Below are positions 1-16,153 of a stretch of DNA of 17,075 nucleotides, in pieces (position 1 is the stretch's first letter; each line of letters opens with the position of its first letter). The translations under genes were made by a program, and so were the position numbers. This DNA comes from a virus, in UHGV virus genome UHGV-2091278; one strand, written 5' to 3'. The notes beneath the pieces are model-generated. The model did not search any database, was not told the DNA's origin, and worked only from the letters and a program-made list of their open reading frames with translations.

Positions 1-1230
1 GACCTGATTGCGCGCACTAAAGCTGCATTACAGAAGAACCCGAAAAATGTGTTGCTGGCGGTGTGCTGGATGCAGGGCGAATTTGACATGAGCGCTGCCA
101 CCTACGCACAGCAACCGGACCTGTTCACGGCCATGCTGAAGCAGTTCCGTACTGACCTTTCCGGATTTAACGCGCAGTGCCATGGCGGCAGTGCTGCAGT
201 TGTACCGTGGATTTGTGGCGACACGACGTATTACTGGAAAAACACATACGGCACACAGTATGACTCCGTCTACGGCGCGTACAAAAACAGGGAGAGCGAC
301 AACGTTTTCTTTGTGCCGTTCATGACCGACGGTAACGGCAACAACACGCCCACCAACTTACCGGCAGAAGACCCGGATATTGCTGATGCAGGTTATTACG
401 GCGCGCAATCCCGTAGTAATGGTAATTGGGTATCGTCAAATCGTCCGACACATTTCAGTTCATGGGCGCGCAGGGGCATTATTTCGGATCGCCTGGCAAC
501 CGCTATTCTGAACGCAGTTGGTCGAACCAGCGCCTTCATCAGCGGTACCGCACCGGAGATTAAACCCTCGCCCGGCGGCGACACGCCATCGGGGCCGTCT
601 GATGGTGACACATCCGTTCGTACAGTCTCCCTGCTGCCGACAGCCGGAGAGGCTGCTGCGCAGGGCTGGACCATCACCGGCGGCAGTGTTGCGCTGGAAG
701 ATGGTGTGTTTAAGGTTACCAAGCAGAGCAATAAAACCTGGTCCCTGATGCATCCGGTGGATGACGCAGTCTCCCTGCTGACACGGGGTGGCAGACTGAG
801 CTGTAAGTTTCGACTGTCAGGCGCACTGACCAACAACCAGTTCGGTCTGGGAATTTATCTGTATACCGATGTAGCGTTACCTGACGTCGTGGCGATGACC
901 GGGACTGGTAACCCGTTCCTGATGTCGTTCTTCACCCAGACCACAGACGGCAAACTGAATCTGATGCATCACAGGAAAGCAGGAAACACAAAGTTGGGCG
1001 AGTTCGGGAATTACAGTAACGACTGGCAGACGCTGGAGCTGGTGTTCACCGCCGGCAGTGCCACGGTTACTCCGAAACTGAATGGAGTGGCTGGCCCGGC
1101 ATTCCAGGTCATAAAAGACAGTCTGACACTGGGGCTGAATGCGCTGACGTTAACTGATATCACTAAAAATGCCGCGTACGGCGTCGATATCGGCAGCCTG
1201 GTGCTGGAAATCAATAATCCCGCAGCATAA
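1..1230 (+). CDS. 5'-truncated CDS; C-terminal part of a SASA/SGNH-type esterase-like protein (NanS-p-like sialate O-acetylesterase) followed by a ~200-aa beta-rich putative carbohydrate-binding domain
   Basis: Reading frame is open from base 1 (the track start at 49 is an internal Met); stop TAA at 1228-1230. Motif ...VCWMQGEFD... resembles the esterase QGE(S/N) region as I remember it. Lies 23 nt upstream of R on the same strand. Confidence 0.45.
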   Translation, partial: DLIARTKAALQKNPKNVLLAVCWMQGEFDMSAATYAQQPDLFTAMLKQFRTDLSGFNAQCHGGSAAVVPWICGDTTYYWKNTYGTQYDSVYGAYKNRESDNVFFVPFMTDGNGNNTPTNLPAEDPDIADAGYYGAQSRSNGNWVSSNRPTHFSSWARRGIISDRLATAILNAVGRTSAFISGTAPEIKPSPGGDTPSGPSDGDTSVRTVSLLPTAGEAAAQGWTITGGSVALEDGVFKVTKQSNKTWSLMHPVDDAVSLLTRGGRLSCKFRLSGALTNNQFGLGIYLYTDVALPDVVAMTGTGNPFLMSFFTQTTDGKLNLMHHRKAGNTKLGEFGNYSNDWQTLELVFTAGSATVTPKLNGVAGPAFQVIKDSLTLGLNALTLTDITKNAAYGVDIGSLVLEINNPAA

Positions 1231-1253
1231 GGAAGAGCAGGAGAGCAAAACAG

Positions 1254-1721
1254 ATGCTTAAGACAAACAGTCTGCGAGAGTCCATGCTTCATGGGTGTCG
1301 GTGGTGCCAGGCTAATCCCGAGAAATTCACCATTTTCGTGGAGAGCGGCAACATTGAAACGACCGGAGAAGCGCCCTCGTTTGTTTACCGCTATCAGATG
1401 GTGATGTTTGTCATGGATTACGCCGGAGAGCTGGACGACCTCACGCTGCCGCTGCTGGCGTGGTTATCCGAAAATCAGCCACAGTTGTTGCTCAATCCGG
1501 AGCGTAATCAGGACATCAAATTTTCTGCCGTTATCAATGACGATGACAGCGCCGATCTCCTGTTTACGCTCCCCCTGCGGGAACGCGTTCGCATCACGCG
1601 CAACAGTCAGGGCACACCGCAGGCAGAACACCTGCCGGAGCCAAAACCCCGTCTGCCCTCTTCCGAAGGCGACTGGTCGCATGTATTCCAGGATGTGACG
1701 TGGGGTGAAAGCGATGGATAA
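1254..1721 (+). CDS. R: P2 gpR-like tail completion protein
   Basis: 155 aa; N-terminus MLKTNSLR... and ...LPLLAWLSENQP... match my memory of P2 gpR (MLKPDSLR..., VPVLAWLRENQP). SD GGAGAG 8 nt upstream of ATG. Confidence 0.8.
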   Translation: MLKTNSLRESMLHGCRWCQANPEKFTIFVESGNIETTGEAPSFVYRYQMVMFVMDYAGELDDLTLPLLAWLSENQPQLLLNPERNQDIKFSAVINDDDSADLLFTLPLRERVRITRNSQGTPQAEHLPEPKPRLPSSEGDWSHVFQDVTWGESDG

Positions 1722-2349
1722 GGCATTCACCAGCGTGGATGAAACCTTTGAGGCTATCCGCGACAGCCTGAATCAGCAGGCCATCAATAACATCGCCAGA
1801 AAGCTGGCACAGGATTTACGTCGCGCCCAGCAGGCACGTATCCGATCACAAAAAGCGCCGGACGGGACCGAATGGACACCACGCAGACGCCGCGTAACCC
1901 GGATACAGGAGCGCATTCGCTTTATCTGGAATAACGAAGCACGCACGCTGAAAAACTGGCATCACGACACGGGGAAATACGGGCGAACCATTACCGGGTG
2001 GGATGAGGATAAAAACAATATCCGCACGTTTTACCGGGATGACATCGACCGTTTTCTGGAAATACGCACCCGGCGCATCAACCAGGACAGCACAAAGCGC
2101 GTCCCCATGTTCGTAAAACTGCGCACCGCCCGCTACCTGAAAGCCCGTGCAGATGCCTCCGGTGTGACGGTGGGTTACAGCGGCGTGGCCGCACGTATTG
2201 CACGCGTTCATCAGTTCGGTGAGCGCGATCAGGTTGCGCCGGGCATTTTCACCGATTACCCGGTACGTGAGCTGTTGGGTATCAGCCAGGCAGATGAGCG
2301 CCTGATTTATAACACGGTGCTGGGCCGGATTGCGGAGGCTGTACGGTGA
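1714..2349 (+). CDS. S: P2 gpS-like tail completion / virion morphogenesis protein
   Basis: Open frame 1705-2349 immediately after R and before V; ATG at 1714 overlaps the R stop (ATGGATAA). GTG at 1705 is an alternative start. Size and position fit the phage virion morphogenesis (gpS) family. Confidence 0.6.
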   Translation: MDKAFTSVDETFEAIRDSLNQQAINNIARKLAQDLRRAQQARIRSQKAPDGTEWTPRRRRVTRIQERIRFIWNNEARTLKNWHHDTGKYGRTITGWDEDKNNIRTFYRDDIDRFLEIRTRRINQDSTKRVPMFVKLRTARYLKARADASGVTVGYSGVAARIARVHQFGERDQVAPGIFTDYPVRELLGISQADERLIYNTVLGRIAEAVR

Positions 2350-2927
2350 GCGCAGAACTCATGCGACTGCTGAGCAACATCATCCGCACCGGGATCATCT
2401 CTGAAGTTGATGAGAAGTCCTGGCGCGTGCGCGTTCGCAGCGGCGAACTGGAAACAGGCTGGTTGCGCTGGAACACCACGCGCGCGGGAGCCTTCAATGT
2501 GTGGCTGCCGCCATCACCAGGCGAACAGGTGGTAATTGCCTGCATTGGCGGCAACCCGGAAACCGCCATGATAATTGGCAGCCTGTGGAGTGATGCCAGT
2601 CCGGCCCCCGGCAAAAGCCTGAAAGAAATCGTGGTCAGCGCGCCGGATGGCGCGGTGTTCCGCTACGACGCAGACGCTGGCGCACTGAGCGCCAGCGGCA
2701 TGAAAACAGCCACCCTGCAGGCATCCGTCAGCGTGACACTGGATACGCCCGTCGTGGAATGCACAAACCTTCTGAGAACAGCGACGCTTGACGTCACAAA
2801 AGGGGGAAAGATGAGCGGCAATATCACGCACAGCGGCGGCAACTTCACCTCAAACGGCATCACAGTGCATACGCATAAACACGGTGGTGTGAAAGGCGGC
2901 AGCGATTCGACAGGAGGCCCGCAGTGA
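2346..2927 (+). CDS. V: P2 gpV-like baseplate central spike protein
   Basis: 193 aa; ...IRTGII...E, WLRW, HTHKHGG... pattern as in P2 gpV; GTG start overlaps S stop (GTGA). ATG at 2361 is an alternative start. Confidence 0.85.
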   Translation: MSAELMRLLSNIIRTGIISEVDEKSWRVRVRSGELETGWLRWNTTRAGAFNVWLPPSPGEQVVIACIGGNPETAMIIGSLWSDASPAPGKSLKEIVVSAPDGAVFRYDADAGALSASGMKTATLQASVSVTLDTPVVECTNLLRTATLDVTKGGKMSGNITHSGGNFTSNGITVHTHKHGGVKGGSDSTGGPQ

Positions 2928-3274
2928 CAACCCGCTACACAGGAATGAATCCGGACGGGACGGGAAACCTGAATGATATGGAGCACCTGAAACAGTCAGC
3001 CAGGGACATCCTGACCACCCCGCTGGCCAGCCGGGTTATGCGACGGGAATATGGCAGCCTTGTACCTGATTTGATTGACGAACCCATGAATAACACCACG
3101 CGTCTGCAATGCATGAGTGCTGCCGTGATTGCGCTGACACGATGGGAACCCCGCATTGCCCTGGACGCCATCGACGTTGTCTGGAAAGCGGGAGGCCGCG
3201 CCGGGGTGACGCTGTCGGGCACTGTCATGCAGACCATGCAGAATGTTGAGTTAACCATCACGCTGAGGGAGTAA
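2924..3274 (+). CDS. W: P2 gpW-like baseplate wedge protein (gp25/lysozyme-like fold family)
   Basis: 116 aa; MTTRYTGMN...RVMRREYGS...WEPR closely parallels P2 gpW (MTARYLGMN...RVMRRDYGS...WEPR). GTG start overlaps V stop, SD AGGAGG upstream. Confidence 0.85.
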   Translation: MTTRYTGMNPDGTGNLNDMEHLKQSARDILTTPLASRVMRREYGSLVPDLIDEPMNNTTRLQCMSAAVIALTRWEPRIALDAIDVVWKAGGRAGVTLSGTVMQTMQNVELTITLRE

Positions 3275-3277
3275 ATC

Positions 3278-4174
3278 ATGCCTGCTGTTGACCTTTCCCA
3301 GTTACCGGAACCCGCCATCATCGCGAAGCCTGATTTTGAGGCAATTCTGGCTGACACAAAGGCCATGATGATTGCGTCCTATCCTGCCGAACAGCGTGAA
3401 GCCGTCTCCGCCGCGCTGGAGCTGGAATCGGAACCCCTGAACGTTATCGCCCAGACAACAGCGTTTCGTGAAATGCTGTTACGCCAGCGGGTCAATGAGG
3501 GTGCACGCGCCTGCATGTTAAGCCACAGCGCCGGGACAGACCTGGACAACCTCGCGGGCAATATGAACACAAAGCGCCTGGTTATCACTCCGGCAACGGA
3601 TACCACCGACGCGGTGATGGAAAGCGACACATCGCTGAGACTGCGGGCGCAACGGGCGTATGACGGTCTGAGTGTTGCTGGCCCGTCAGGCGCATACGAG
3701 TATTTTGCACGCAGCGCCAGCGGTCTGGTACGCGACGCGCGAGCCATCAGCCCGTCTCCGGCCAACGTGACGGTTTCCATCCTGTCCACTGAAGGCGACG
3801 GCACAGCAACGGAGGCGTTGCTTAATACCGTTCGCGCCGTTCTGAATGCAGAGGATACCCGCCCGGTGGCCGACCGCCTGACCGTACAGAGCGCCAGAAT
3901 CGTGACATGGCGGCTGAATGCAAAACTGTACTTTTACCCCGGCCCGGAATCCGAACCTATTCTGGCCGCGGCTGAATCGTCGTTCAGGAAGTGGCTGGCT
4001 GAGCAGGGGCTTATCGGTCAGGACGTGGCGTTGTCCGCCATTGCTGCCGCACTGCATGTGCACGGTGTGCAACGCGTGGAGATAATCGAACCCACACAGA
4101 ATATGGCCATCAGCGACATACAGGCGGCGCGCTGTGAGTCATTCACCATCAGCGAAGGTGGACGCAATGAGTAA
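3278..4174 (+). CDS. J: P2 gpJ-like baseplate protein
   Basis: 298 aa; MP..DL.QLP...SEPL...RPVADR.TVQSA...LYFYPGPESEPI... is collinear with P2 gpJ; SD GAGGGA 7 nt upstream. Confidence 0.85.
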   Translation: MPAVDLSQLPEPAIIAKPDFEAILADTKAMMIASYPAEQREAVSAALELESEPLNVIAQTTAFREMLLRQRVNEGARACMLSHSAGTDLDNLAGNMNTKRLVITPATDTTDAVMESDTSLRLRAQRAYDGLSVAGPSGAYEYFARSASGLVRDARAISPSPANVTVSILSTEGDGTATEALLNTVRAVLNAEDTRPVADRLTVQSARIVTWRLNAKLYFYPGPESEPILAAAESSFRKWLAEQGLIGQDVALSAIAAALHVHGVQRVEIIEPTQNMAISDIQAARCESFTISEGGRNE

Positions 4175-4697
4175 TTCGTTGTTACCACCATCAGCCAGCA
4201 ATTTCATGCGTTGTGCCGAAGCCGTCGGAACACGCATTACAGACATTCCGGTAGACCTCAACACGCTGTGGTCGCCGGACACCTGCCCGGTGCATCTGCT
4301 GCCTTATCTCGCCTGGGCGTTTTCCGTTGACCGCTGGGATCGCAACTGGCCGGAAGAGACAAAGCGACAGGTGATTCGTGATGCATGGCTGATACACCGA
4401 CACAAAGGGACCATCAGCGCACTGCGCAGGGCCATTGAGCCGCTGGGATACCTCATTCGCGTGTCTGAGTGGTGGGAGTTCGGCGGAGAACCGGGAACAT
4501 TTACCGTTGAAGTCGGCACGCTGGACAGTGGCGTGACGGAGGAAATGTATCTGGAAATGGAGCGGTTGATTGCTGATGCCCGCCCGGTCAGCCGCCACAT
4601 GACAGGGCTGAATATCATTCAGGAGATCCCGGGGGATATTTTCGCGGCGGCAGCAACTTACGACGGTGAAGTCATTACCATTTATCCGGACGATTAA
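4167..4697 (+). CDS. I: P2 gpI-like baseplate protein
   Basis: Track ORF starts at 4134, but homology to P2 gpI begins at MSNSLLPP (ATG 4167, overlapping the J stop). ...[25 protein letters not shown]...HKGTI...[14 protein letters not shown]... matches gpI. Confidence 0.85.
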
Positions 4698-4699
4698 GC

Positions 4700-6847
4700 A
4701 TGAGTACCACAACACGAAAATTTAAAACCATTATCACTGATACTGGTGCCAAAAAATTAGCTCAGGCTGCCGCGCCAGATGGTAATCCTGTCCGCCTGAC
4801 TCATATGGCCGTGGGCGACGGTGGCGGCACGTTGCCCACACCAGACAGTAAGCAGATCCGTCTGGTGCATGAGGTGTGGCGACATACTGTTAATCGCGTC
4901 ATCCTGGACGCAACACATCAGAACCGCATTATTGCGGAGCTGGTTATTCCTCCTGAAACGGGCGGATTCTGGATCCGGGAAATTGGTGTATTTGATGAGC
5001 ACGGCGATTTGATCGCGGTGGGCAATACTGCCGAAAGTTACAAACCAACCGTTGCCGAAGGATCCGGACGTGCACAAACATTTCGCACCATTCTGACCGT
5101 ATCCAGCACTGCCACCGTGGCGCTTACCGTGGATAACACCATGGTAATGGCCACAGTGGATTACGTGAATGACAAACTGAAAGAACATGAACAGTCACGA
5201 CGTCACCCGGACGCCTCGCTGACCGCAAAAGGCTTTGTTCAACTCAGTAGCGACACTAACAGCGTGTCTGAAACGCAGGCTGCAACGCCGAAAGCAGTAA
5301 AGGCCGCGTATGATCTTGCTAACGGGAAATATACTGCGCAGGATGCCACCACAGCGCGAAAAGGCCTTGTCCAGCTCAGTAGCGCCACCAACAGCGATTC
5401 TGAAACGCTGGCGGCAACACCAATGGCGGTAAAGGCAGCATATGACCTTGCTAACGGGAAATATACTGCGCAGGATGCCACCACAGCGCGGAAAGGCCTT
5501 GTCCAGCTCAGTAGCGCCACCAACAGCACGTCTGAAGCACTGGCCGCAACACCGAAAGCGGTAAAGACAGCATATGACCTTGCTAACGGGAAATATACCG
5601 CTCAGGACGCTACGACAGCACAAAAAGGGATTGTCCAGCTAAGCAGCGCGACTAACAGCACATCTGAAACGCTTGCCGCGACACCGAAAGCAGTGAAAGC
5701 AGCTAATGACAATGCGAATGGTCGGGTACCTTCTGCCCGTAAGGTGAATGGTAAGGCGCTTTCAGCGGATATTACACTGACGCCGAAAGATATTGGTACG
5801 CTTAACTCAACAACTATGTCATTTAGCGGTGGTGCTGGTTGGTTCAAATTAGCAACGGTAACCATGCCGCAGGCGAGTTCTGTTGTTTCAATTACGTTGA
5901 TTGGTGGGGCTGGATATAACGTCGGTTCACCTCAACAGGCAGGTATATCTGAACTTGTTTTGCGTGCAGGTAATGGTAATCCGAAGGGGATTACTGGTGC
6001 TTTATGGCAGCGCACATCGACAGGGTTTACAAATTTTGCCTGGGTCAATACATCTGGTGATACTTACGATATTTACGTTGCAATCGGAAATTATGCGACT
6101 GGTGTAAATATTCAATGGGATTATACCAGTAATGCCAGCGTAACGATTCATACGTCACCAGCATATTCTGCTAATAAGCCGGAAGGGTTAACGGACGGTA
6201 CAGTTTATTCACTCTATACGCCATCAGAGCAGTTTTATCCGCCTGGCGCACCAATCCCGTGGCCATCGGATACCGTTCCGTCTGGTTATGCCCTGATGCA
6301 GGGGCAGACTTTTGACAAATCTGCCTACCCGAAACTTGCAGTCGCTTATCCGTCAGGCGTGATCCCTGATATGCGTGGCTGGACGATTAAGGGCAAGCCC
6401 GCCAGTGGTCGTGCCGTATTGTCTCAGGAACAGGACGGCATTAAATCGCACACCCACAGCGCCAGTGCATCCAGTACGGATTTGGGGACGAAAACCACAT
6501 CGTCGTTTGATTACGGTACTAAAACGACCAGTTCATTTGATTACGGCACAAAAACCACAAATAGCGCAGGAGCTCATTCACACAATATACCTGTTGGTCA
6601 CACTGGCGCGGGGAATGGTGTATCAGCCGGTTATAACGCTGCGTTAGGTACTGGTACCACGTCGAGCGCAGGAGGGCATGCTCACAATGTATATATCGGT
6701 GCCCATAACCACACTATCGGCATTGGTGCTCATGCCCATTCTGTCATTATTGGTCCCCACGGACACACCATCACCGTTAATGCTACGGGGAACGCAGAAA
6801 ACACCGTAAAAAACATCGCATTTAACTATATTGTGAGGCTTGCATAA
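4700..6847 (+). CDS. H: P2 gpH-like tail fibre protein, conserved N-terminal attachment domain, variable repeat-rich shaft and His-rich C-terminal tip
   Basis: 715 aa; N-terminus [23 protein letters not shown]... is typical of P2/Mu/P1-type fibres; internal 44-aa repeats; C-terminal HxH motifs and ...[11 protein letters not shown] terminus. Confidence 0.85.
5225..5720. repeat. Four tandem near-identical 132-bp (44-codon) repeats inside the tail fibre gene
   Basis: Repeat unit KG(F/L/I)[35 protein letters not shown](R/Q); the GGC/GGG phase points 5231, 5363, 5495 and 5627 are exactly 132 nt apart. Confidence 0.85.
6485..6565. repeat. Short 30-bp tandem repeat ([10 protein letters not shown] x ~3) in the fibre distal region
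   Basis: [10 protein letters not shown] repeated consecutively in the translation; nucleotide period 30. Confidence 0.6.
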
Positions 6848-7425
6848 TGACATTCAGAATGAGTGAACAATCACGGACCATAAAAATTTATAATCTACTG
6901 ACCGGAACCAATGAGTTTATTGGTGAAGGTGATGCATACATTCCACCTCATACAGGTCTGCCTGCAAACAGTACCGATATTGCACCACCAGATATTCCGG
7001 CTGGCTTCGTGGCTGTTTTCAACAGTGATGAGGCATCGTGGCATCTCGTTGAAGACCATCGGGGTAAAACTGTTTATGACGTGGCATCAGGGGACGCGTT
7101 ATTTATTTCTGAACTCGGTCCGTTACCGGAAAATGTTACCTGGTTGTCGCCGGATGGAGAGTGTCAGAAGTGGAACGGCACATCCTGGGTGAAAGATGCA
7201 GAAGCAGAAAAACTGTTTCGGGTAAGGGAGGCAGAAGAAACAAAAAACAGCCTGATGCAGGTAGCCAGTGAGCATATTGCGCCACTTCAGGATGCCGTAG
7301 ATTTGGATATTGCGACGGAGGAAGAGGCATCGTTACTGGCTGCATGGAAGACATATCGGGTATTGTTGAATCGTGTTGATACAACAGTAGCAGCGGATGT
7401 TGAGTGGCCAGTCGCCCCACAATAA
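6847..7425 (+). CDS. G: Tail fibre assembly chaperone (P2 gpG / Tfa-like)
   Basis: 192 aa; ATG overlaps H stop (TAATG); protein resembles Tfa/gpG chaperones; sits directly after the fibre gene. Confidence 0.8.
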
Positions 7426-7432
7426 AAAGAAA

Positions 7433-7460
7433 AAGCCATCGACAGAAATATCGATGGCTT
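7433..7460. terminator. Bidirectional intrinsic terminator between convergent G and the acetyltransferase gene
   Basis: Perfect 10-bp stem AAGCCATCGA / TCGATGGCTT with 8-nt loop, A-run upstream (AATAAAAAGAAAA) and TTT downstream. Confidence 0.55.
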
Positions 7461-7468
7461 TATGTACT

Positions 7469-8074
7469 CTATTTATACAATACAACACCACTCTTTTTAG
7501 TTATATATGTGCAGTTTGATGGTATATCTTTATTTATAAAAGACATTGCACCTATTTTTACATTATCCCCAATTTTACGTGATAATCCAATGATGCAACA
7601 ATTAGCTCCGATATCAACGTTACTACCAATTTTCACTCTTGAACCAGGCATGTCACCATCTATCTGCCCAATGGTAGTATTCTGTCGTAATACCAGATTT
7701 TCACCCGCATCAACAGCAAAATGAACAACAATTCCAGCATGATGGGGAATTGTTAACCCTTTTCCAATATTTGCTCCTAATCCTATTTCACAACCAAATT
7801 TGTTAATTATTTTACTGTTTAACTTTTTGGCTGCTTTCTTATGTAATTTATTACCATTAATATACATTTCGTTAGCCAACCGCCACCAGAAAAGGAAATT
7901 CCGGTTACGCTGCTTTTTCTCTCTTAAAAGCCTCCAGATATCCATACGTTTCCGCCGAATTACTTCATGTTTCCAGAAGTTTTTTAAATTAGTAGAGTTC
8001 CCAAATAAAACAAAGTGAATTGCCATTAAGTAGGACAGCACGAAAATCTCCTTAATTATTATTTCAGACCACAC
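7469..8074 (-). CDS. Hexapeptide-repeat (left-handed beta-helix) acyltransferase, serine O-acetyltransferase (CysE/WcaB-like) family; A+T-rich cargo (moron) gene
   Basis: 201 aa; C-terminal ...IGLGANIGKGLTIPHHAGIVV...IGQIDGDMPGSRVKIGSNVDIGANCCIIG...IGDNVKIGAMSFI... is the classic [LIV]G hexapeptide pattern and the DG..G.R.P.IG motif of serine acetyltransferases. Visibly lower GC than flanks. Start uncertain (GTG 8074, ATG 8026 or ATG 7945). Confidence 0.65.
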   Translation of the reverse strand: MWSEIIIKEIFVLSYLMAIHFVLFGNSTNLKNFWKHEVIRRKRMDIWRLLREKKQRNRNFLFWWRLANEMYINGNKLHKKAAKKLNSKIINKFGCEIGLGANIGKGLTIPHHAGIVVHFAVDAGENLVLRQNTTIGQIDGDMPGSRVKIGSNVDIGANCCIIGLSRKIGDNVKIGAMSFINKDIPSNCTYITKKSGVVLYK

Positions 8075-8154
8075 ATGTTATAAGGTTAAGAGATTATAAA
8101 ATCCTGTTATTTGTTATTCAAAAACAATTTTCTGAGAAGGACATACAACAGCAA

Positions 8155-8187
8155 GTCGCCAGTCACCTTCATCAGGAAATTGGCGAC
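8155..8187 (-). terminator. Hairpin downstream of U (possible end of the FI-U transcript)
   Basis: 7-bp inverted repeat GTCGCCA...TGGCGAC with 19-nt loop; no clear U-tract, so weak. Confidence 0.2.
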
Positions 8188-8197
8188 ATACGTTAAA

Positions 8198-8692
8198 TCA
8201 GAGCAGCCCCTTAACTGAGCTGGCCGCGCTGTTAAGGGATGATGTCACCTTATCTTTGAAGCCGGACAACATATCGCTGAACGATGAGGATTGCAGGCGC
8301 TCCCGCAAATCCTCATCACAGCGTTCAAGAGTCAGTGAAAATTCTATCTTTTTCGCCTTACCGTAGCGATCAAACTCGGAGCGGGTCGTATTCGTTTCAG
8401 TCAGTACATACATGCCGTAAATCTGCCCGACGCCATCAATCAGAGGCCAGGGGCATCCTGTATATGCCTGCGTGGTCAACAACGACAGCGACACTTCGCC
8501 ACCTGTAATCTCAGGATAAAGAACACCCGAAAGAACGATGCGATCATCACCTGCACCGATATACTGCCAGCTTGCCGAACGGTTAACGCGTTCATTTTTC
8601 ACATGTCGCCAGCTTTTGTTTTGCTGTAACTGCTGATGCGGCAACGTGCGCAACTCAAAAACAAACATGCCGTAGATCATCATCATGGCCAT
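8198..8692 (-). CDS. U: P2 gpU-like tail protein
   Basis: 164 aa; ...LSGVLYPEITGGEVSLSLL...WPLIDG.G.IYGMYV... parallels P2 gpU; SD GAGGAG overlaps the T stop. Confidence 0.85.
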   Translation of the reverse strand: MAMMMIYGMFVFELRTLPHQQLQQNKSWRHVKNERVNRSASWQYIGAGDDRIVLSGVLYPEITGGEVSLSLLTTQAYTGCPWPLIDGVGQIYGMYVLTETNTTRSEFDRYGKAKKIEFSLTLERCDEDLRERLQSSSFSDMLSGFKDKVTSSLNSAASSVKGLL

Positions 8693-8698
8693 GACTCC

Positions 8699-11515
8699 TC
8701 AATCTTTATCGTAAAAACTGCCACGTCCGGCACGGTCGCGTCGTTCCAATTCTGCCCTGACCATTTCACCGACCAGTTTCGCCAGTTCGCGGGGATTCTG
8801 CGTAACAACGTTATGCAGATGAACATGAATTTCACCGCCAAATCCGGAGGCAACAGGCTCCCGGTTACGGGAAGTTACAGGAACTGATGCCACTGGAGAT
8901 CGTATGGCCTCCGCCACCGGGCGGGAGCTGGCCGCAACAACAGGGACCAGCGCCGGAGGCAGCGGAGCCGGGACCACGGGTGTGATATTAATTGCGGGGG
9001 CAGGCTTACTGACCTGCGCAATCTTCCGCTCCTGCCACTCCCCACGAACAGCAAGTGCGCGGGGCAGGTTTTTAAAGACAATATCGCCGGGGCCAATGCG
9101 TTTTTTCGTCTCCTCAACCAGCTTACCTGTGTTATCAGCAATTTTGCTGAGTCTGCGCAGCGTACCGGTATTGCTGTCTGTGAGCGGTTTATTGTCTTTG
9201 GAGTTATCACCTCCGGTGCCATTGCCATTTTCCACAGGCTTCGGCGGATTGATTTTCGCCAGGTCCCCCTGAAGTAAGGCAACCTTGTCCTGAAGAATGG
9301 CCGCACGCTGTGCGTCTTCGATTTTCTTGCGCGCCCTTTCCGCTTCATCCGGAAGGACGCCAAGTTTTTCAAGTATCCACGCCAGCGTATCCAGTAGCAT
9401 TTTTGCAGGTGTCAGAACAAGTTGTAACGCACCGCCAAGAACGTTACCGAATATCTCGCCAGCACTGGTACATTTATCCAGCGTTTCCTTGCTGGACTCC
9501 ATCGGTGACAACAGCGATTTAAACCAGTTAAACACCTGGCTGATCCCGCTTCCGATTGCGTCAAAAACAGGACCAAACCGTTCAAAGGTTTCGCGCAACG
9601 GGGTCAGCCTTTCCATAATCCCGCTGAACACCCCGGCAAAAAATGCCCTGATGGGATCCCAGTATTTCCAGATGAGAACGGCAGCTCCGGCAAGCGCAGC
9701 CACGATAAGACCGACCGGACTGAACAACGCCCCGATAGCGCCCCCCAGTAACGAAACGGAACCCGTCACCATTCCCCATAGTGCTGGCAGGAGTCTGACA
9801 GCATTCATTGAACCGGTCAGGAGGGAAAAGCCAAGACGCAGTTTTGCCAGCGGGCCAGCAAGCACACCAATAGCCAGCGACAACGAGCCAACCGTTGCAG
9901 TCATTGCCAGCAACGCACCGCCTGCTATCAGTAGCTGGCGCGTCAGTACCGGATGAGCCTGCGCCAGCGAGGTGATTTTTTCAAGCACCCGCGTGAGCCA
10001 CTGCGTGACAGAACGCAGCGGACCGTCAACCAGATCACTGATGCGAATACGAAGACCTTCCCATGCGCTGTCGAGATTTTTCAGGTCCCCATCAAGATTA
10101 TCGGCCATTACTTTTGCAACGCGATCGGCCTCTCCCCTTGCCCCCTGCAATTCTCTGGTCAGTTTTTGCAGCTCTCCTGAACCAGCCGCCGCAACAAGCG
10201 TCTGCAAACCAACGAACGCCTCTTCTCCGGCGATGTCCTTGAAGAAGGAGACCTGGTCCACCTGTCCGTATTTTTGTGTCGCCTTATAGAGATCAAGCAG
10301 CACATCCTCCATCGGGCGCATTTTGCCTCTGGCGTCAGCAACTGACACCCCCAGCTCTTTCAGCGCATCAGCCGCAGCTTTTGGCGGTGATGCAAGGCGG
10401 GACAGACTTGCGCGCATGGCCGTACCAGCATCGCTTCCACGAAGACCATTATTGGCAAGCATCCCGGCCATGGCTGCCGCTTCTTCAAGACTGATACCAA
10501 GTTTTGCGGCAACCGGACCGGTATACTTCATGGTTTCGCCCAGCGCGCGTAAATCAGTATTGGTCCGGGTGAATGCCGCTGTCAGCGTATCGCCAACCCG
10601 GTCCATTTGATCGGCTGTCAGGTTGAACTGTGTGAGGATATTGGAGCCTATATCCGCCGTCTCGCCGAGTTCGACGCCACCTGCCAGCGCCATATTAAGA
10701 ACACCGGGCAATGCGGCCTGAATGGCCTGCGGAGTAAAACCAGCCATTGCCAGAAAGCTCTGCCCACTGGCGGCATCACTCGCAGTAAACTGTGTTTCAG
10801 AACCAAGTTTTAACGCCTGCTCACGCAGCGCCTTAAACTGCGGGCTGTTTTTGTCGATTCGCGTCAGTGCCTGAACGCGGGACATCTCTTTGCCGAACCC
10901 GATCGCAGGCTGCAAAAAACGTCCGGCAGCATAGCCGCCAGCCGCTGCAGCACCAATTGCCAGCGCACCACCTGTTTTCAGTTTTCCCACGGTTTCCTGC
11001 GCGCGCGAATACCGCTCACGCGCCCGCGTTACACGCGCAAGCGCCTGCCGTTCGCGTTCAAGTTGGTTGTTGTACTGTTCGGTGCGTCTGATGGCCTGCT
11101 GGATGGTGTTATCGCTGCCTGTCAGGGAAATGCCGTGGCGTTTCAGCTCTCCGCCAAGTTCCCGCATTTTCTGAATTTCCCGTGTGCGCGATTCATTCAG
11201 GCGTTCAAGCCGGGTGCTTAACTGCTGCATCAGCTTTTGTTGTTTTTCGCTGAGAACTGTACCCGTGCGTTGTAACTGATTAAGTGCGTTAAGCTGGCGT
11301 CGTGCTTTCACGATGCCAGCATCCGCTTTACTGACAGCGTCGCGGGCGCGCTCAAATGAACGCGCCTGACGCTCGAGATTTTTGATCGCCCCCTGCGTTC
11401 GCTGAATGGAGTCACCAAACTGCCCCATCAGGCGGCGGGCGTTTTCGGCAGGCCGGGTCAGCCTGTCAACGGCGCTGAAAGCGACCCGGATGTCAAGAGT
11501 CTTCATTATCTGCAT
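8699..11515 (-). CDS. T: Tail tape measure protein (P2 gpT-like)
   Basis: Very long ORF (up to 947 aa from GTG 11542); coiled-coil-rich N-terminal region, Gly/Ala-rich hydrophobic middle segments, position between E/E' and U. Start most likely ATG 11515 or 11506, overlapping the E' stop. Confidence 0.85.
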   Translation of the reverse strand: MQIMKTLDIRVAFSAVDRLTRPAENARRLMGQFGDSIQRTQGAIKNLERQARSFERARDAVSKADAGIVKARRQLNALNQLQRTGTVLSEKQQKLMQQLSTRLERLNESRTREIQKMRELGGELKRHGISLTGSDNTIQQAIRRTEQYNNQLERERQALARVTRARERYSRAQETVGKLKTGGALAIGAAAAGGYAAGRFLQPAIGFGKEMSRVQALTRIDKNSPQFKALREQALKLGSETQFTASDAASGQSFLAMAGFTPQAIQAALPGVLNMALAGGVELGETADIGSNILTQFNLTADQMDRVGDTLTAAFTRTNTDLRALGETMKYTGPVAAKLGISLEEAAAMAGMLANNGLRGSDAGTAMRASLSRLASPPKAAADALKELGVSVADARGKMRPMEDVLLDLYKATQKYGQVDQVSFFKDIAGEEAFVGLQTLVAAAGSGELQKLTRELQGARGEADRVAKVMADNLDGDLKNLDSAWEGLRIRISDLVDGPLRSVTQWLTRVLEKITSLAQAHPVLTRQLLIAGGALLAMTATVGSLSLAIGVLAGPLAKLRLGFSLLTGSMNAVRLLPALWGMVTGSVSLLGGAIGALFSPVGLIVAALAGAAVLIWKYWDPIRAFFAGVFSGIMERLTPLRETFERFGPVFDAIGSGISQVFNWFKSLLSPMESSKETLDKCTSAGEIFGNVLGGALQLVLTPAKMLLDTLAWILEKLGVLPDEAERARKKIEDAQRAAILQDKVALLQGDLAKINPPKPVENGNGTGGDNSKDNKPLTDSNTGTLRRLSKIADNTGKLVEETKKRIGPGDIVFKNLPRALAVRGEWQERKIAQVSKPAPAINITPVVPAPLPPALVPVVAASSRPVAEAIRSPVASVPVTSRNREPVASGFGGEIHVHLHNVVTQNPRELAKLVGEMVRAELERRDRAGRGSFYDKD

Positions 11516-11761
11516 TCCCGCTGCGAAGTGCCGCCCGCTCACGCCAGCTAACCACTTCGCCGGGCGTCATCATGAAGATTTCGGCGGGCGACCAGTTAAA
11601 AATGGCGGCAATATCCGCCACCAGATCTTCGATGTGCTCAAAGCACACCAGGGTGATTACGCTGCCGTCTCCTGCACGCTCTTCGCGCCAGAGTCTGGCT
11701 CGCTCATAAAATTTACAGCCACAGCGCACAACTGAATAAAATCGCGTGACGACATTTTTTT
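11493..11761 (-). CDS. E': E' segment: -1 frame extension producing the E+E' fusion tail assembly chaperone
   Basis: The -1 frame opens exactly at the A7 run (plus-strand T7, 11755-11761) inside E and stays open to TGA at 11493-11495; the arrangement mirrors P2 E/E+E' and lambda G/GT. Confidence 0.7.
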
Positions 11762-12031
11762 AATCATCACTTCATCCAGTCGTGGCGAGGTCACGCGAGG
11801 CAACAGCGTGAACATGGTATCCGCTTTCAGATTCAGCACATCAGACAGCGACAGACCACGCAGGGATCCCGCCTGCTCAATAGCCCCGGTGATCTCCACA
11901 TATGTGATTTTTTCGGCACCACGCTCAATTGGCCGGGAAAGTTTTACACCACGTTCGACAGCCATATCCTCACCTGCCGTCACATCATCCGCTACGGTGT
12001 TATTCCGGGTTTCAGTATCGATATCTTTCAT
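11657..12031 (-). CDS. E: P2 gpE-like tail assembly chaperone (zero-frame product)
   Basis: 124 aa; located between tube and tape measure genes; SD AGGAG 7 nt upstream of ATG; contains the frameshift site. Confidence 0.8.
   Translation of the reverse strand: MKDIDTETRNNTVADDVTAGEDMAVERGVKLSRPIERGAEKITYVEITGAIEQAGSLRGLSLSDVLNLKADTMFTLLPRVTSPRLDEVMIKKMSSRDFIQLCAVAVNFMSEPDSGAKSVQETAA
11755..11761 (-). other. Putative programmed -1 ribosomal frameshift slippery site (A AAA AAA on the coding strand)
   Basis: A7 homopolymer at E codons ~90-92 (..VMIKKM..); the -1 frame has stop codons immediately upstream and opens at this run. Confidence 0.55.
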
Positions 12032-12086
12032 CAGTTGTCTCCTTTTCAGTCAGAGGCGACGCACTGCGCCGCCTGCATATTACTTA

Positions 12087-12599
12087 TCAGCCAAGCCCAA
12101 GCGCGGAACGAATGCGGTCAGGCACAATGTCCTTGCCGTCCTTCCGGTAGATGTGGTTCAACAGGTCGATTTCCCACAGCGGGCGATCGTTAACGCTAAG
12201 CTTGTAGTAGGTGTTTTTGACAGCGTAAGTGTGTGATGTGGCTTCGCCCTGTTTGGCCTCCCCCATATCAATTTCCGTCACACGCCCGCGCATCTCGATT
12301 TCATACAGATCGCTTTCTGCATCGGTGTAATATTCACCCGCAAAACGCAGCAGCGTGCCGTCAATCGTGCCGCCATACTTAAGGAACAGTGCACGAACAG
12401 CTCCCCCCATGACAAAGCTCGCATCAAGCGCGGAGTCGTCCAGACCGAGATCAATACTTACTGCCCCCATCATGCCACCACCACGATAGCTGTCGGTTTT
12501 GCGCGTCAGTTTGGGCGGCGTGACGGATGTCACTTTACCCACTTCGTTTTCACCATCCACAAACAGCGTAAAAAAGCGAAGATGTTTTGGTACAGCCAT
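12087..12599 (-). CDS. FII: P2 gpFII-like tail tube protein
   Basis: 170 aa; ...TPPKLTRKTDSYRGGGM.G...DLGLDD... matches P2 FII (LPKLTRKLENYRGAGM...DLGLDD); start ATG overlaps the FI stop (TGATG). Confidence 0.9.
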   Translation of the reverse strand: MAVPKHLRFFTLFVDGENEVGKVTSVTPPKLTRKTDSYRGGGMMGAVSIDLGLDDSALDASFVMGGAVRALFLKYGGTIDGTLLRFAGEYYTDAESDLYEIEMRGRVTEIDMGEAKQGEATSHTYAVKNTYYKLSVNDRPLWEIDLLNHIYRKDGKDIVPDRIRSALGLG

Positions 12600-13783
12600 C
12601 AGGCACCTCCCAGCACCGCAAATGCGGGACCAAAGAATTCATCAGTAAACGTCTGGTAAAGCTCCATGTCTTCCAGCGGGGGAACGGGCGTATATTTGTA
12701 GCGAATACGCACACGCCCCTGACGTAAATCCGTGGTGCCGTTATCCACCACGTCATACCAGCACTCCGCGCCAATCAGTTTCCCGGCAGTAACCAGCGAA
12801 TCCAGTTTTGCCCTGATGGCGCTGATAACATCCTTCACGTTCGCAGGCGTCAGTGGACTGTCGATGGTTTCAAACTGCGCTTCCGCAATTGAATCAGCCA
12901 GCACCTGTGCGGTTCGGGTATACACCTCAAAGATGTAGGCGTTCGTTTCCGGTGTGCGGTTGCCCCAGAAGCGGAACCCGTTGCGACGAATAATGGTCGT
13001 GATTTCTTTGTTGTTGAGGCTGTTGGCATCACTGTCTTCGGCCTGTAATGACCAGAACACATGCCTCGACATCCCCAGCACATTTTTAACCGGAACGTTG
13101 GACAGTGATTTGTGCCACCCCTGCTCATGGTCAATGTACGCACGAAGGCCGCACGCATAGGCAGGCGCGGGGAACGTTTCGTTTTTGCCACTTTTCGGGT
13201 TGTAGGCGATGAAGTCCGGCCATAAGAGCATCACCTCACGTTCGTTGAATTTCTGGCGGTAGGTAATCGCCTCAGCCATCGTGTTACAGCCGTGACATGA
13301 GGCATACACAAACGCGCGCAGTTTACCTGCAATCACGCACAGGGATTTTGTTACAGCCTCCGTGTCCAGCTCCGGCGCAGCCAGAATACGCGGACGGTAT
13401 CCGATGCTTTCATCCTGCTCTGCAACAAGCAGCGCATACATCCCCGTATAGCTGCCGTCATCCTCAGAACCACCGATAACCAGTTGATCCTGCGTCTTTC
13501 CGTCTTCTTCTTTGTGTTCAGCCACGCGAACGACGATCACCTTTGTGCTCACCTGGTCTGCGATGGCCTTAAGCGCACGATAAAGCGTCCCCGTTGTTCC
13601 GCATTTTCCCAGCACGTCATTGACGCGGGTCAGCAGTGTGGGCTTGTTCAGCGGGAACAGCTTCGCGTCCGCATCATCCGCCGTTGCCACGATACCGATA
13701 ACGCTGGAATCAACATCGTTAATCGCTGTTACCAGGTCGGTATTTTCCGTAACACGGGCACCATGAAAACGAGTTTCACTCAT
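12599..13783 (-). CDS. FI: P2 gpFI-like contractile tail sheath protein
   Basis: 394 aa; ...FPLNKP...KLRAF.Y....C.T..E...YRQ.F..RE.M..WPDF...EQGWHK.LSNV...FRFWGNRT...YTRTAQV..D...YTPVPPLE... is diagnostic of the P2 sheath family. Confidence 0.9.
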   Translation of the reverse strand: MSETRFHGARVTENTDLVTAINDVDSSVIGIVATADDADAKLFPLNKPTLLTRVNDVLGKCGTTGTLYRALKAIADQVSTKVIVVRVAEHKEEDGKTQDQLVIGGSEDDGSYTGMYALLVAEQDESIGYRPRILAAPELDTEAVTKSLCVIAGKLRAFVYASCHGCNTMAEAITYRQKFNEREVMLLWPDFIAYNPKSGKNETFPAPAYACGLRAYIDHEQGWHKSLSNVPVKNVLGMSRHVFWSLQAEDSDANSLNNKEITTIIRRNGFRFWGNRTPETNAYIFEVYTRTAQVLADSIAEAQFETIDSPLTPANVKDVISAIRAKLDSLVTAGKLIGAECWYDVVDNGTTDLRQGRVRIRYKYTPVPPLEDMELYQTFTDEFFGPAFAVLGGA

Positions 13784-13940
13784 AGCTTCAGCCCCTTGTA
13801 TCCGTTAAATGATTCGGCAACAATCATCACCCACCACGCGCGTAATCTCACCCCTGCGCTATTCTCCCGCCACGGCGACAACAAAAAGCAGTACCCCCCT
13901 CCGCACGCACATGCGACCATGCCGTACAGGGAGGGAACAG
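13784..13940. promoter_or_regulatory. Divergent intergenic region expected to hold the late promoters for the FI operon (-) and D (+)
   Basis: 157-bp non-coding gap between divergently oriented start codons; no specific Ogr-box could be confidently recognised by eye. Confidence 0.3.
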
Positions 13941-15050
13941 ATGACCGACACCACCATGCAATTGCTCAGTCAGGGCACAGACCCCGTGAAAATGCCGGAT
14001 TTTGATATTCTCGCCGAGGGTAAAACGCTGTCCGGCGTGGCAGAACGCCTGATGAGCCTGTCACTGACCGACAACCGGGGATTTGAGGCGGACCAGCTCA
14101 CCATCACGCTGGATGATGCCGATGGCCAGTTGCAGCTACCGCCACGGGGCGCGCGCCTGACGGTTCTCATTGGCTGGAAAGGGGAACCGCTGACAGAAAA
14201 AGGCACTTACATTGTTGATGAAATCGCTCACGAAGGACCGCCGGACAGGCTGACTGTTTCAGCCAGAAGCGCAGATTTTCGGGATGAATTTAATGTTAAA
14301 CGTGAGGCGTCCTGGCATGATGTGACCGTTGAACGTGTGGTATCCGCCATCGCTCATCGGTACGGCCTGAAACCGCAAATCAGCGAAATGCTGATGGATA
14401 TCGAAATCGACCACGCCGACCAGACTGAAGAAAGCGACATGTCCTTCCTTACGCGCATGGCGGAAATGCTGGGCGCAATCACCACGGTAAAAAGCGGTAA
14501 TCTGTTATTCATCATGCCCGGCGGTGGCGTGAACGCACAGGGCCAGCCGTTGCCATCGTTCGCCATCACACGCAGCAGCGGCGATCGCCATCAGTTCCGC
14601 ATTGCTGACCGCGAGGCGTATACGGGGGTACGCGCTTACTGGCTTGATCTTAATTACGGGAAAAAGAAAAAAGTCAGCGTGAAACGCCGCAAACCGCCAA
14701 AACCCAAAAAGGAGAAAAGCAGCAGCCGTGAAGGTGATTATATGGAAGGCGCGGAAGGCAATGTGTTTGTGTTACGCAAGACTTATCAGAACGAGCAGGC
14801 AGCAAGACGCGCAGCGGCGGCAAAGTGGCAGCAGCTACAACGCGGAGCCGCATCATTCTCCATCACACTGGCACGCGGACGCGCAGAACTCTACCCCGAA
14901 ATGCATGGCACGGTAACAGGATTTAAAAGCGAGATTGATAATCAGGACTGGATTATTGCAAAATCCGAGCACACCATTGATAACAGCGGCTTTACCACGC
15001 AGCTTGAGCTTGAAGCAAAAATTCCGGAATGGATAGCAGAAACAGAATGA
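13941..15050 (+). CDS. D: P2 gpD-like tail protein
   Basis: Track ORF starts at 13809, but homology to P2 gpD begins at MTDTTMQLLSQGTDPV...; ATG 13941 has GGGAGGGAA SD upstream. ...DNRGF.ADQLT.TLDDADG...YIVDEIAH.G.PD.LTV.ARSADFR..., the basic KK-rich stretch and ...SGFTT.LELE... are all gpD-like. Confidence 0.85.
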   Translation: MTDTTMQLLSQGTDPVKMPDFDILAEGKTLSGVAERLMSLSLTDNRGFEADQLTITLDDADGQLQLPPRGARLTVLIGWKGEPLTEKGTYIVDEIAHEGPPDRLTVSARSADFRDEFNVKREASWHDVTVERVVSAIAHRYGLKPQISEMLMDIEIDHADQTEESDMSFLTRMAEMLGAITTVKSGNLLFIMPGGGVNAQGQPLPSFAITRSSGDRHQFRIADREAYTGVRAYWLDLNYGKKKKVSVKRRKPPKPKKEKSSSREGDYMEGAEGNVFVLRKTYQNEQAARRAAAAKWQQLQRGAASFSITLARGRAELYPEMHGTVTGFKSEIDNQDWIIAKSEHTIDNSGFTTQLELEAKIPEWIAETE

Positions 15051-15106
15051 GTAAATTAGATGCATTAGCTCAGTCATGAGTTTACTGATTACGTACGGCA
15101 CAGAAG

Positions 15107-15141
15107 CAAACCTGATAGTTTGCTCTGTGCCAGAAACGGAC
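15107..15141. terminator. Long imperfect inverted repeat between convergent D and the DUF2971-like gene
   Basis: GGCACAGAAGCAAA ... TTTGCTCTGTGCC (about 13 bp stem, one bulge, 8-nt loop); no adjacent U-tract, so function uncertain. Confidence 0.25.
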
Positions 15142-15172
15142 ATTGCCGACATCATAATCGACACAAATTACA

Positions 15173-16036
15173 TTAATCACCTATGTGATTACGTTCTATA
15201 TATCTTACAATCTTCTCTAAAGATTCAACCCCCCACCTCTGCATAGCATGCGGGGATTCTGTATATTCATAATCTTCTATGGTGAGATCCCATGTACTTT
15301 TCTTGAATTCACACTGATATAATCGCACAGTCTTGTTTAAAACCAACCCTTCTAACACACTGCTTTTCTTAATGATTTTGTCAATGTCTTTATTGTTAAT
15401 CCCAATGTAGATAGCTGTTACCGAACTTAAATCAGTTATCTTGTCAATTAAAATATTTTCTTGCTTTTGTAATAGCCCCACTCGCTTTATTATTCTAACT
15501 TCTTCTTCATATTTCCAATGCAATGATTTAGTAAGCAATAATTTACTAATTACATCAGCGCTATAAATGTTTTCTTGACTGATTTTTAGTTTGCTTTTTA
15601 TTCGACTCTCTAAATAATTAATGTCACCTTTCTGTGCCGTAATTAGGCATTTTTCTTCATCATCAAACCCTGCCCTTTCTGTGTCAATTGCTACAACAAA
15701 CCCCTGATGTTTATCAGCATAATGTGACCACATCAGTACATTGAGAGGATTTTTAGAAAGGCATAAGCAGGCAACATTTTGATTGATCTCCCCCCTCATA
15801 GCTAATGGTTCAAGCGATTCACCATCTAATGAAAGTTCATAGCCATAGCTTTCAAAAGGATCATTAAACTCACTATATGGAGTGAATTTTATAGAGATGT
15901 AACCATCTTTAAAAAATCGTTCCAATGATGTCTTATCTATATATTTATACAGAATCATAATATATTCAGAATTAATTATAGGTGTTATCAGTATACAGTA
16001 CTTCAACAAGTAGATGTAAAGATCCCATTTAAACAT
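15173..16036 (-). CDS. DUF2971-family-like protein of unknown function; A+T-rich cargo gene inserted between D and ogr
   Basis: 287 aa; ...ILYKYIDKTSLERFF.DGYI..KFTPYSEFNDPFES... and ...LMWSHYADKHQGFVVAID... resemble the conserved N-terminal motifs I associate with DUF2971. Strong SD GAGGAGGA directly before ATG 16036; visibly low GC. Confidence 0.6.
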   Translation of the reverse strand: MFKWDLYIYLLKYCILITPIINSEYIMILYKYIDKTSLERFFKDGYISIKFTPYSEFNDPFESYGYELSLDGESLEPLAMRGEINQNVACLCLSKNPLNVLMWSHYADKHQGFVVAIDTERAGFDDEEKCLITAQKGDINYLESRIKSKLKISQENIYSADVISKLLLTKSLHWKYEEEVRIIKRVGLLQKQENILIDKITDLSSVTAIYIGINNKDIDKIIKKSSVLEGLVLNKTVRLYQCEFKKSTWDLTIEDYEYTESPHAMQRWGVESLEKIVRYIERNHIGD

Positions 16037-16153
16037 TCCTCCTCAATACGCGGATTAAACAAATTAAAGCATCTTACTCAAAATGGACCATCAGTTGGAT
16101 TTAGAGCCAACACAACCTAGAATAGCGGCAGCACCACGTTAAGGGAGGTCGCT

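Follow-up and report, generated by a model that had tools for sequence, protein, structure and literature searches.

The virus genome UHGV-2091278 (17,075 nucleotides, nt; the whole stretch of DNA that was analyzed, here called the window) opens inside a gene that resembles the sialate O-acetylesterase genes (nanS-p) of lambdoid prophages and yet is followed directly by R, the tail completion gene of a P2-type tail module. How does such a gene come to lie there, and has it taken the place of the P2 lysis cassette? Frame 1 is open from the first nucleotide of the window through a TAA at 1228-1230 (410 codons, covering the last 409 residues of a 626-residue protein), and the gene does stop 23 bp before the gpR start codon at 1254, as stated in the original prediction. 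We conclude that it is very probably a prophage sialate O-acetylesterase gene, an accessory gene that a P88-like Escherichia coli prophage (Xuanwuvirus, P2 family) bears between its lysC and R. NanS-p is known from lambdoid and Shiga toxin (Stx) phages; what differs here is the under-described P2-family context and a P2-specific subtype of the N-terminal domain.

The complete gene was read from near-identical genomes. That of strain 300444 aligns to the whole window (17075 nt, reported identity 100.0%) with 3 nt mismatches within the first 1756 nt, at 585, 974 and 981; all three fall inside nanS-p and one is non-synonymous (K542R). Over the parts that were compared, the two genomes closest to the window show 2 and 3 nt differences from it, and window nt 1-1800 are at least 99% identical to hundreds of complete E. 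coli chromosomes. In strains 300444 and 266917_2 nanS-p measures 1881 nt and encodes 626 residues (RefSeq WP_032207317.1, named only 'DUF6645 domain-containing protein'). The 5′ 651 nt, which lie upstream of the window, encode a DUF1737 domain, a linker and the GQSN nucleophile motif.

The protein has the three-domain architecture of NanS-p: an N-terminal DUF1737 domain, a NanS-type SGNH esterase domain and a C-terminal lectin-like DUF6645 domain. Pfam finds DUF1737 (PF08410) at residues 4-53 (30.5 bits, cut-off 24), SASA (PF03629) at 75-271 (49.3 bits, cut-off 24.8) and DUF6645 at 477-587 (70.1 bits), all above their cut-offs. The part encoded in the window still matches DUF6645 (E 2e-19), while its SASA match of 18.6 bits falls under the cut-off, so the SASA assignment that had been proposed holds for the full-length protein and not for the fragment. 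Residues 69-388 match E. coli NanS (PDB 3PT5; phmmer E 1.9e-123) and residues 431-623 match the crystal structure of a NanS-p C-terminal domain (PDB 6YP6; E 3.9e-30). The recognition of a NanS-p-like esterase with a lectin-like C-terminal domain was therefore correct, and Pfam, PDB and PHROGs returned esterase, DUF1737 and DUF6645 only, with no tail-fibre or lysis family among them.

Both catalytic residues of NanS are kept, Ser82 (GQSN) and His368 (RPTH) aligning to NanS Ser19 and His301. NanS catalysis uses this pair and no catalytic Asp (PMC9063846); of the Ser-His-Asp triad that the original prediction looked for, Ser and His are thus conserved, and the Asp was the wrong residue to look for. 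We assign the motif WMQGEFD, which is the same in NanS according to the 3PT5 alignment, as a putative block III of the four-block SGNH scheme (PMC10462455). Stx2 phage 86 shares the block IV variant RPTH (PMC10462455). Four aromatic residues have been proposed to form the binding site of the phi24B C-terminal domain (PMC10462455); these residues, Y510, Y515, Y540 and F611, correspond here to F498, Y503, F528 and L594, three of the four still being aromatic.

We examined the neighborhood of the complete gene in the two nearest genomes. In strains 300444 and 266917_2 alike the genes directly upstream are X, holin, M15 endolysin, a DUF2570 (LysB-like) gene and an Rz1-like lysC, whose stop codon overlaps the nanS-p ATG (ATGA). 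The esterase therefore does not sit where the P2 lysis cassette should be, as had been supposed, but between the complete cassette and R. Given how closely these two genomes match the window, it is unlikely that the cassette is missing from the genome to which the window belongs. Farther upstream lie P2-family capsid, scaffold, terminase, portal, gpA, Cox, repressor and integrase genes, giving the P2-like order integrase/Cox/gpA, Q-P-O-N-M-L-X, lysis, R-S-V-W-J-I-H-G, FI-U, D, ogr. The remainder of the window is the P2-family tail region, with S, V, W, J, I, H and G on the plus strand, U, T, E, FII and FI on the minus strand, and D and ogr again on the plus strand. Backbone DNA was assigned to the P88 group (Xuanwuvirus, Peduoviridae), and the prophage of strain 266917_2 is integrated between pdxB and flk. 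The lambdoid contexts that we examined agree with the original prediction in placing NanS-p genes in lambdoid late regions, usually between Q/stx and holin; that is not the context found here. No lambdoid gene or DNA flanks nanS-p, the lambdoid homology ending within the gene on both sides.

The same site is empty in P88, 520873, 503458, 500465-2, P884B11, Chuche and PhiR44_2, where the same lysis genes are joined directly to R, and nanS-p is a presence/absence polymorphism among P88-like phages. Homology to P88 is lost 53 nt before the nanS-p ATG, in the 3′ end of lysC, and regained 42 nt into R, so that about the first 42 nt of R belong to the segment that differs from the empty-site P88. 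At the protein level the last approximately 17 residues of the o-spanin LysC differ between nanS-p-bearing and empty-site P88-like phages (AELDKRIAELTHQTGVTQ and ELLEQRRLQRLNNEDNNHAEN, respectively), as do R residues 5-14. Since the LysC tail and the R start have both diverged, the exchanged segment includes flanks of both neighboring genes. The nanS-p segment has a GC content of 55%, as has the phage as a whole, in contrast to 35-40% in the window's two other cargo islands.

Across its length nanS-p is a mosaic. The allele of a non-Stx lambdoid prophage in E. coli strain Ec-U3 (WP_000874316.1) is 98% identical in the esterase domain (residues 69-395), 100% in the linker (396-424) and 98% in the C-terminal domain (425-626), and only 29% identical in residues 1-68. 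For an Stx1-phage allele the corresponding values, from the N terminus on, are 31, 88, 86 and 84%, and for phi24B they are 22, 69, 34 and 37%. At the DNA level identity to lambdoid alleles over nt 207-1866 of the gene is 86-97.5%, the highest value being that for Ec-U3, where the gene lies in the order antiterminator, tRNAs, nanS-p, holin.

The N-terminal coding DNA behaves differently from the body of the gene. It is present in 376 E. coli genomes, at least 99% identical in 367 of these, and in 40 of the 40 matches listed it lies inside a nanS-p (DUF6645) gene, with lysC annotated alongside in 36. Of 18 P88-like loci from IMG/VR, 15 match the reference in this DNA at 99.5-100% identity and three have a variant of about 92%, while the nanS-p body ranges over 88-100% and can come as near to lambdoid alleles (98.4%) as it does to other copies of the P88-like kind. 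Conserved N-terminal DNA joined to a variable, lambdoid-like body indicates that P2-like and lambdoid prophages residing in the same host have exchanged the body by crossovers in the gene; residues 69-626 have been swapped with lambdoid alleles repeatedly, and the N-terminal DUF1737 is a P2-family-specific subtype. One 50-kb IMG/VR entry (IMGVR_UViG_2529292998_000004; our L024 and L151) carries a P88-like head module together with lambda-related terminase and portal genes. It could represent adjacent prophages or a chimeric bin; co-residence of this kind is what would permit exchange of the nanS-p body.

Of 5426 complete E. coli genomes, 373 (about 7%) have the arrangement of lysis genes, nanS-p and R. 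An evenly spaced sample of the ranking (n=60 records) held 11 with the arrangement and 17 empty-site P88-like prophages. Among the carriers are the O104:H4 outbreak lineage, O26 and ST131, and we saw no link between nanS-p carriage and a given host serotype. A NanS-type esterase domain is encoded by 347 of the deposited phage genomes, and only three of these, all Peduoviridae, have the N terminus found here. Searching a single genome of each species with the full protein gave five loci only, in Escherichia relatives and, as plain NanS-like genes, in Proteus and in a Bacillota metagenome-assembled genome. Neither esterase nor SASA nor DUF1737 is mentioned in a survey of 5945 P2-like genomes, and the paper describing P88 does not speak of an esterase either. 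NanS-p has so far been treated almost wholly as a Stx companion in lambdoid phages, and here it is common in P2-family prophages under an uninformative RefSeq name, which matters for counts of nanS-p copies and for growth on O-acetylated sialic acids.

We searched more widely with the N-terminal domain. A word-indexed protein search returned only truncated, near-identical fragments. A full HMMER scan gave 10 matches, the best two non-self ones being frameshifted copies that led to IMG/VR contigs L014-L020. These represent a second P2-like lineage, whose capsid protein is 62%, portal 70% and R 56-58% identical to those here, whose DNA aligns to P88 only in the terminase/portal region (about 71% identity), and which had no close match in the phage collection. 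Its intact NanS-p proteins (656, 642 and 645 residues) retain the DUF1737-SASA-DUF6645 architecture and the lysC-R position. Their N termini are 52-65% identical to the one here and have its loop in common (SEPGVPWYLMQAM; here YEPGTPWYLMQAM); their esterase domains are only 66-71% identical to that here, and their DUF6645 domains too are more divergent. Finding the P2-type DUF1737 at the same site in a divergent lineage indicates that this module tracks the P2-family backbone, and nanS-p at the lysC-R site is probably old in the P2-like phage group instead of a one-off capture. For P0015 and P0016, two small proteins that consist of DUF1737 alone, no viral contig could be assigned. A NanS-p-like gene with SASA and DUF6645 domains was also seen at L109:9839-11848 (and in L112 and L113), in which a 99-residue N terminus beginning MPGNFTVKVSGG stands instead of DUF1737. 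It immediately follows a Mu-like block of baseplate, tail-fibre and invertase genes, with a C5-methylase gene and a DUF968 gene coming after it; this makes three kinds of phage in which the esterase body occurs.

From this arrangement a mode of action can be proposed. On prophage induction nanS-p would be transcribed with the late head-lysis-tail-completion operon, R having its own ribosome-binding site; a late head-lysis-R-S transcript that includes nanS-p is suggested by the ATGA overlap, the common strand and the absence of a predicted terminator or promoter. Induction-dependent expression has been reported for lambdoid nanS-p (PMC8065619). By homology the SGNH domain, with Ser82 as nucleophile and His368 as base, would strip 9-O-acetyl groups from Neu5,9Ac2 and from acetylated mucin sialoglycans, and the lectin-like jelly-roll domain probably targets the enzyme to glycans. 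The protein begins with DUF1737 and has no obvious signal peptide, so NanS-p would probably be released by phage lysis and possibly also on the virion; a benefit to the lysogen population may follow. A review credits all five NanS-p alleles of O104:H4 C227-11phi-cu with active esterases that let Neu5,9Ac2 be used for growth, and NanS-p enzymes with removing O-acetyl groups from mucin glycans (PMC8065619). The P88-like copy of O104:H4 (WP_000202135.1) shares the lysC-nanS-p-R arrangement and 624 of 626 residues with the protein described here, differing by two substitutions, and is probably among the five. The linker of phi24B NanS-p corresponding to residues 396-424 has been reported as a self-processing site (bioRxiv 10.64898/2026.04.10.717836), and the P88-like linker may by analogy be processed likewise.

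Several points count against this account. The 9-O-acetylesterase activity of P88-like NanS-p is predicted by homology for the copy in the window and by analogy with the O104:H4 alleles, and the O104:H4 P88-like copy is a presumed one of the five active alleles. NCBIfam and PADLOC have no model for the NanS-p protein, and its PHROGs family, phrog_143, is of unknown function. A scan for promoters and terminators around the insertion gave matches at chance level, and no signal was called. The Ogr-site pattern TGT-N12-ACA occurs three times in 26 kb, at none of the expected late-promoter positions and less often than in shuffled sequence, which makes the scan uninformative; with the strict consensus missing at the expected late promoters, operon membership is argued from gene arrangement. 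The records vB_EcoM-569R5 and -705R2 are apparently phages located in clinical-isolate genomes and were not used as evidence of prophage inducibility.

The alternative that survives best concerns where the enzyme acts, namely that the P2-type DUF1737 docks NanS-p on gpN hexons, the particle-borne esterase and lectin then binding or traversing O-acetylated mucus; the linkers might later be self-cleaved, by analogy with phi24B. We hold this only tentatively. Its foundation is a 2026 cryo-EM and proteomics preprint on phi24B, in which NanS-p (gp84) is a structural protein and DUF1737 is a capsid-binding domain, forming hexamers on the face-centre hexons of the T=9 capsid and anchored by a Tyr42 loop that inserts an aromatic 'tooth' into the hexon pore; after release gp84 is cleaved at linker motifs, with a cut after about residue 54-57 near SISSP (bioRxiv 10.64898/2026.04.10.717836). 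The P2-type domain is a bona fide DUF1737 by its PF08410 score, the domain alignment being invariant at L17, L25, G28, W29, G33 and Q49, and it has a conserved loop of its own, EPG(T/V)PWYLMQAM, with a DISPDSP stretch after Gly55.

To relate N-terminal subtype to head module we classified 186 NanS-p loci into four core types, counting loci with a typable head module. Type A has the short loop VAITPYTLMQA and occurs with lambda-related, lambda/434-type and unrelated Ec-U3-type heads. Type B has the phi24B-type loop and goes with the phi24B-type head in 8 of 9 loci; type C, with the loop SSYTDDGAALIQ, goes with one distinct head type in 6 of 6; and type D, with the P2-type loop, goes with the P2-family head in 26 of 26. 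Many of the loci counted are near-identical prophages, and nanS-p and head genes are physically linked, so the association is suggestive and not proof. A strict rule that N-terminal type equals head type was dropped on finding type A with unrelated heads: phage 434 (lambda E/D head) bears type A, and an identical 52-residue type-A core is found with lambda-related heads (16 loci) and with Ec-U3-type heads (9 loci).

Docking on the P2-type capsid gains from the restriction of the P2-type N terminus to P2-family phages, in the typed loci, the three phage records and the 376 E. coli genomes alike, from its retention at the lysC-R site in a lineage whose capsid has diverged as far as noted above while the esterase body is swapped with lambdoids, and from the single head types that accompany types B and C. 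It loses from the type-A core on two unrelated head modules, which tells that the N-terminal type need not match the capsid, and from the sharp module boundary at residue 68, which homologous recombination would by itself be expected to leave, the N termini being too diverged to recombine. The anchor loop is of another length and sequence (AYEPGTPWY as against STAGYGAEF in phi24B), and phi24B Tyr42 stands opposite Thr43, though W45 and Y46 are adjacent. The phi24B protein moreover occupies only the flat face-centre hexons of its shell. The P2 shell is T=7 and is not known to have flat face-centre hexons of the T=9 type. We found no structure or virion proteomics for any P88-like phage. By analogy with phi24B, capsid display by the P2-type DUF1737 is plausible, if less than probable. 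The virion-associated glycan-modifying enzyme that the original prediction gave as a second reading likewise gains plausibility from the phi24B preprint. A more general version, in which DUF1737 is an exchangeable head-type-specific adaptor whose P2 subtype tethers NanS-p to gpN, so that P88-like particles would bear the esterase and lectin out of the cell, one enzymatic body circulating by recombination among unrelated temperate phages (lambdoid, P2-like, possibly Mu-like with another N terminus) and every phage type contributing an adaptor for its own capsid, seems to us less likely than not. The P2-specific N-terminal module set against the freely exchanged body offers a simple, testable handle on the capsid-binding claim for DUF1737, and if P2-type capsids bore that claim out, P88-like phages would give a genetically tractable means of studying enzyme display on heads and phage-mucus interactions.

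In our account NanS-p would act on host sialoglycans. It might instead be a receptor-modifying enzyme that acts on O-acetylated bacterial O-antigen, polysialic acid or other capsules, for adsorption or progeny release, a role that has been raised for NanS-p in review (PMC8065619) and that would suit both its embedding among virion and lysis genes and the hexapeptide O-acetyltransferase-like cargo gene of the same prophage (window 7469-8074). We consider this improbable, as the esterase domain shares about 65% identity with chromosomal NanS, an enzyme for free Neu5,9Ac2 (PMC9063846), the reported activity of NanS-p enzymes on mucin glycans points the same way, and no link of carriage to serotype was seen. 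More improbable still is a decaying, non-functional leftover of past recombination: a few public copies are frameshifted or truncated (P0011, P0013; L022, L023, L046), but full-length, near-identical open reading frames are annotated in all 11 of the sampled carriers (of the 373), the catalytic motifs are intact, and the divergent P2-like lineage has intact orthologs. The reading of the original prediction, in which a P2-type tail module is joined to a late region of lambdoid origin and the esterase replaces the lysis cassette, has the lambdoid-like DNA within the gene in its favor but is excluded by the intact P2-type lysis set directly upstream in both nearest genomes, by P2-family head, replication and immunity genes beyond it in a prophage that is P2-like from integrase to ogr, and by the confinement of lambdoid homology to nt 207-1866 of nanS-p.

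As a prophage sialate O-acetylesterase, P88-like NanS-p can be compared with several known systems. The lambdoid and Stx-phage proteins (933W L0105/z1466; phi24B vb_24B_21, which is gp84; the Stx1-phage 'yjhS') have the same three domains and SGNH motifs, with overall identities of 81% to the Stx1-phage allele and 50% to vb_24B_21, and are likewise encoded by late-region prophage genes adjoining lysis genes. They differ in that the lambdoid gene precedes holin, whereas the P88-like (Peduoviridae) gene follows the lysis cassette, and in that the P88-like DUF1737 is a separate subtype, 22-31% identical and with another loop. Chromosomal E. coli NanS (YjhS) is homologous in the catalytic domain, with the Ser/His pair and the Gln-Ser-Asn motif kept, but has neither DUF1737 nor the lectin-like C-terminal domain and is not phage-borne. 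Among hexon-centre decoration proteins (the phi24B gp84 DUF1737 and, by analogy, T4 Hoc and T5 pb10), the likeness lies in a small N-terminal domain homologous to phi24B DUF1737; the P2-type loop differs, and the P2-type domain is known from sequence.

Table 1. Coordinates of nanS-p, its parts and its neighbors in the window and in related genomes
Feature	Position	Strand	Basis
nanS-p, 3′ part (residues 218-626 of 626, with stop codon)	1..1230	+	open frame; full gene in near-identical genomes
C-terminal two thirds of NanS-type SGNH (type II) esterase domain, residues 218-395	1..534	+	3PT5 match; Pfam SASA
WMQGEFD motif, putative SGNH block III, residues 240-246	67..87	+	same in NanS per 3PT5 alignment
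CAT codon of His368, block IV RPTH	451..453	+	opposite 3PT5 chain residue 312 (= NanS His301)
Pro/Ser/Gly-rich interdomain linker, residues about 396-424, FISGTAPEIKPSPGGDTPSGPSDGDTSVR	535..621	+	sequence
C-terminal lectin-like (jelly-roll) carbohydrate-binding domain, Pfam DUF6645	622..1227	+	6YP6 E 3.9e-30; DUF6645 E 2e-19
Spacer from nanS-p stop to R start, 23 nt, Shine-Dalgarno-like AGGAG at 1239-1243	1231..1253	+	sequence
gpR tail completion gene, downstream neighbor, ATG at 1254	1254..1721	+	PF06891 E 1.4e-38
R 5′ end compared with empty-site phage	window 1254-1295		
lysC 3′ end compared with empty-site phage	L001 19298-19353; L004 1184-1250		
Full nanS-p gene in near-identical genomes	L001:19350-21230; L205:5595-7475		
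Second-lineage NanS-p genes at lysC-R site	L014:10001-11968; L018:5044-6969; L020:3281-5215		

The window holds other cargo. Between the tail-fibre assembly gene G and gpU lies a gene for a 201-residue hexapeptide-repeat acetyltransferase-like protein (7469-8074, minus strand), in a low-GC island at about 7200-8400 (39-40% GC; the phage has about 55%). Its product resembles EpsC, CysE and WcaB, every match being under the curated cut-off. With this gene and nanS-p, one prophage bears both O-acetyltransferase-like and O-acetylesterase genes. Strain 266917_2 has a DNA invertase and an extra tail-protein gene at this site instead. A second island (15001-16200, 35-38% GC) between gpD and ogr contains a gene for a 287-residue DUF2971 protein (15173-16036, minus strand) with a match in PADLOC to PDC-S31, a candidate defence family (E 4e-27). 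Elsewhere macro-domain and DUF3800 proteins are annotated under the aligned region at the D-ogr site, and strain 266917_2 has a different hypothetical protein there; given these varied contents, the site may be a variable cargo or defence hotspot.

The FI-FII-E-T-U block (8198-13783, minus strand) runs opposite to R-S-V-W-J-I-H-G (1254-7425, plus strand) and D (13809-15050, plus strand). In phage P2 all of these genes are described as running in one direction. Strain 266917_2 is annotated with the same reversed layout, which may be typical of this prophage group. The tail-fibre gene H (4700-6847) includes four tandem 44-residue repeats of the form KG(F/L/I)VQLSS(D/A)TNS... at 5228-5755, with four matches to Pfam Phage_fiber_2.

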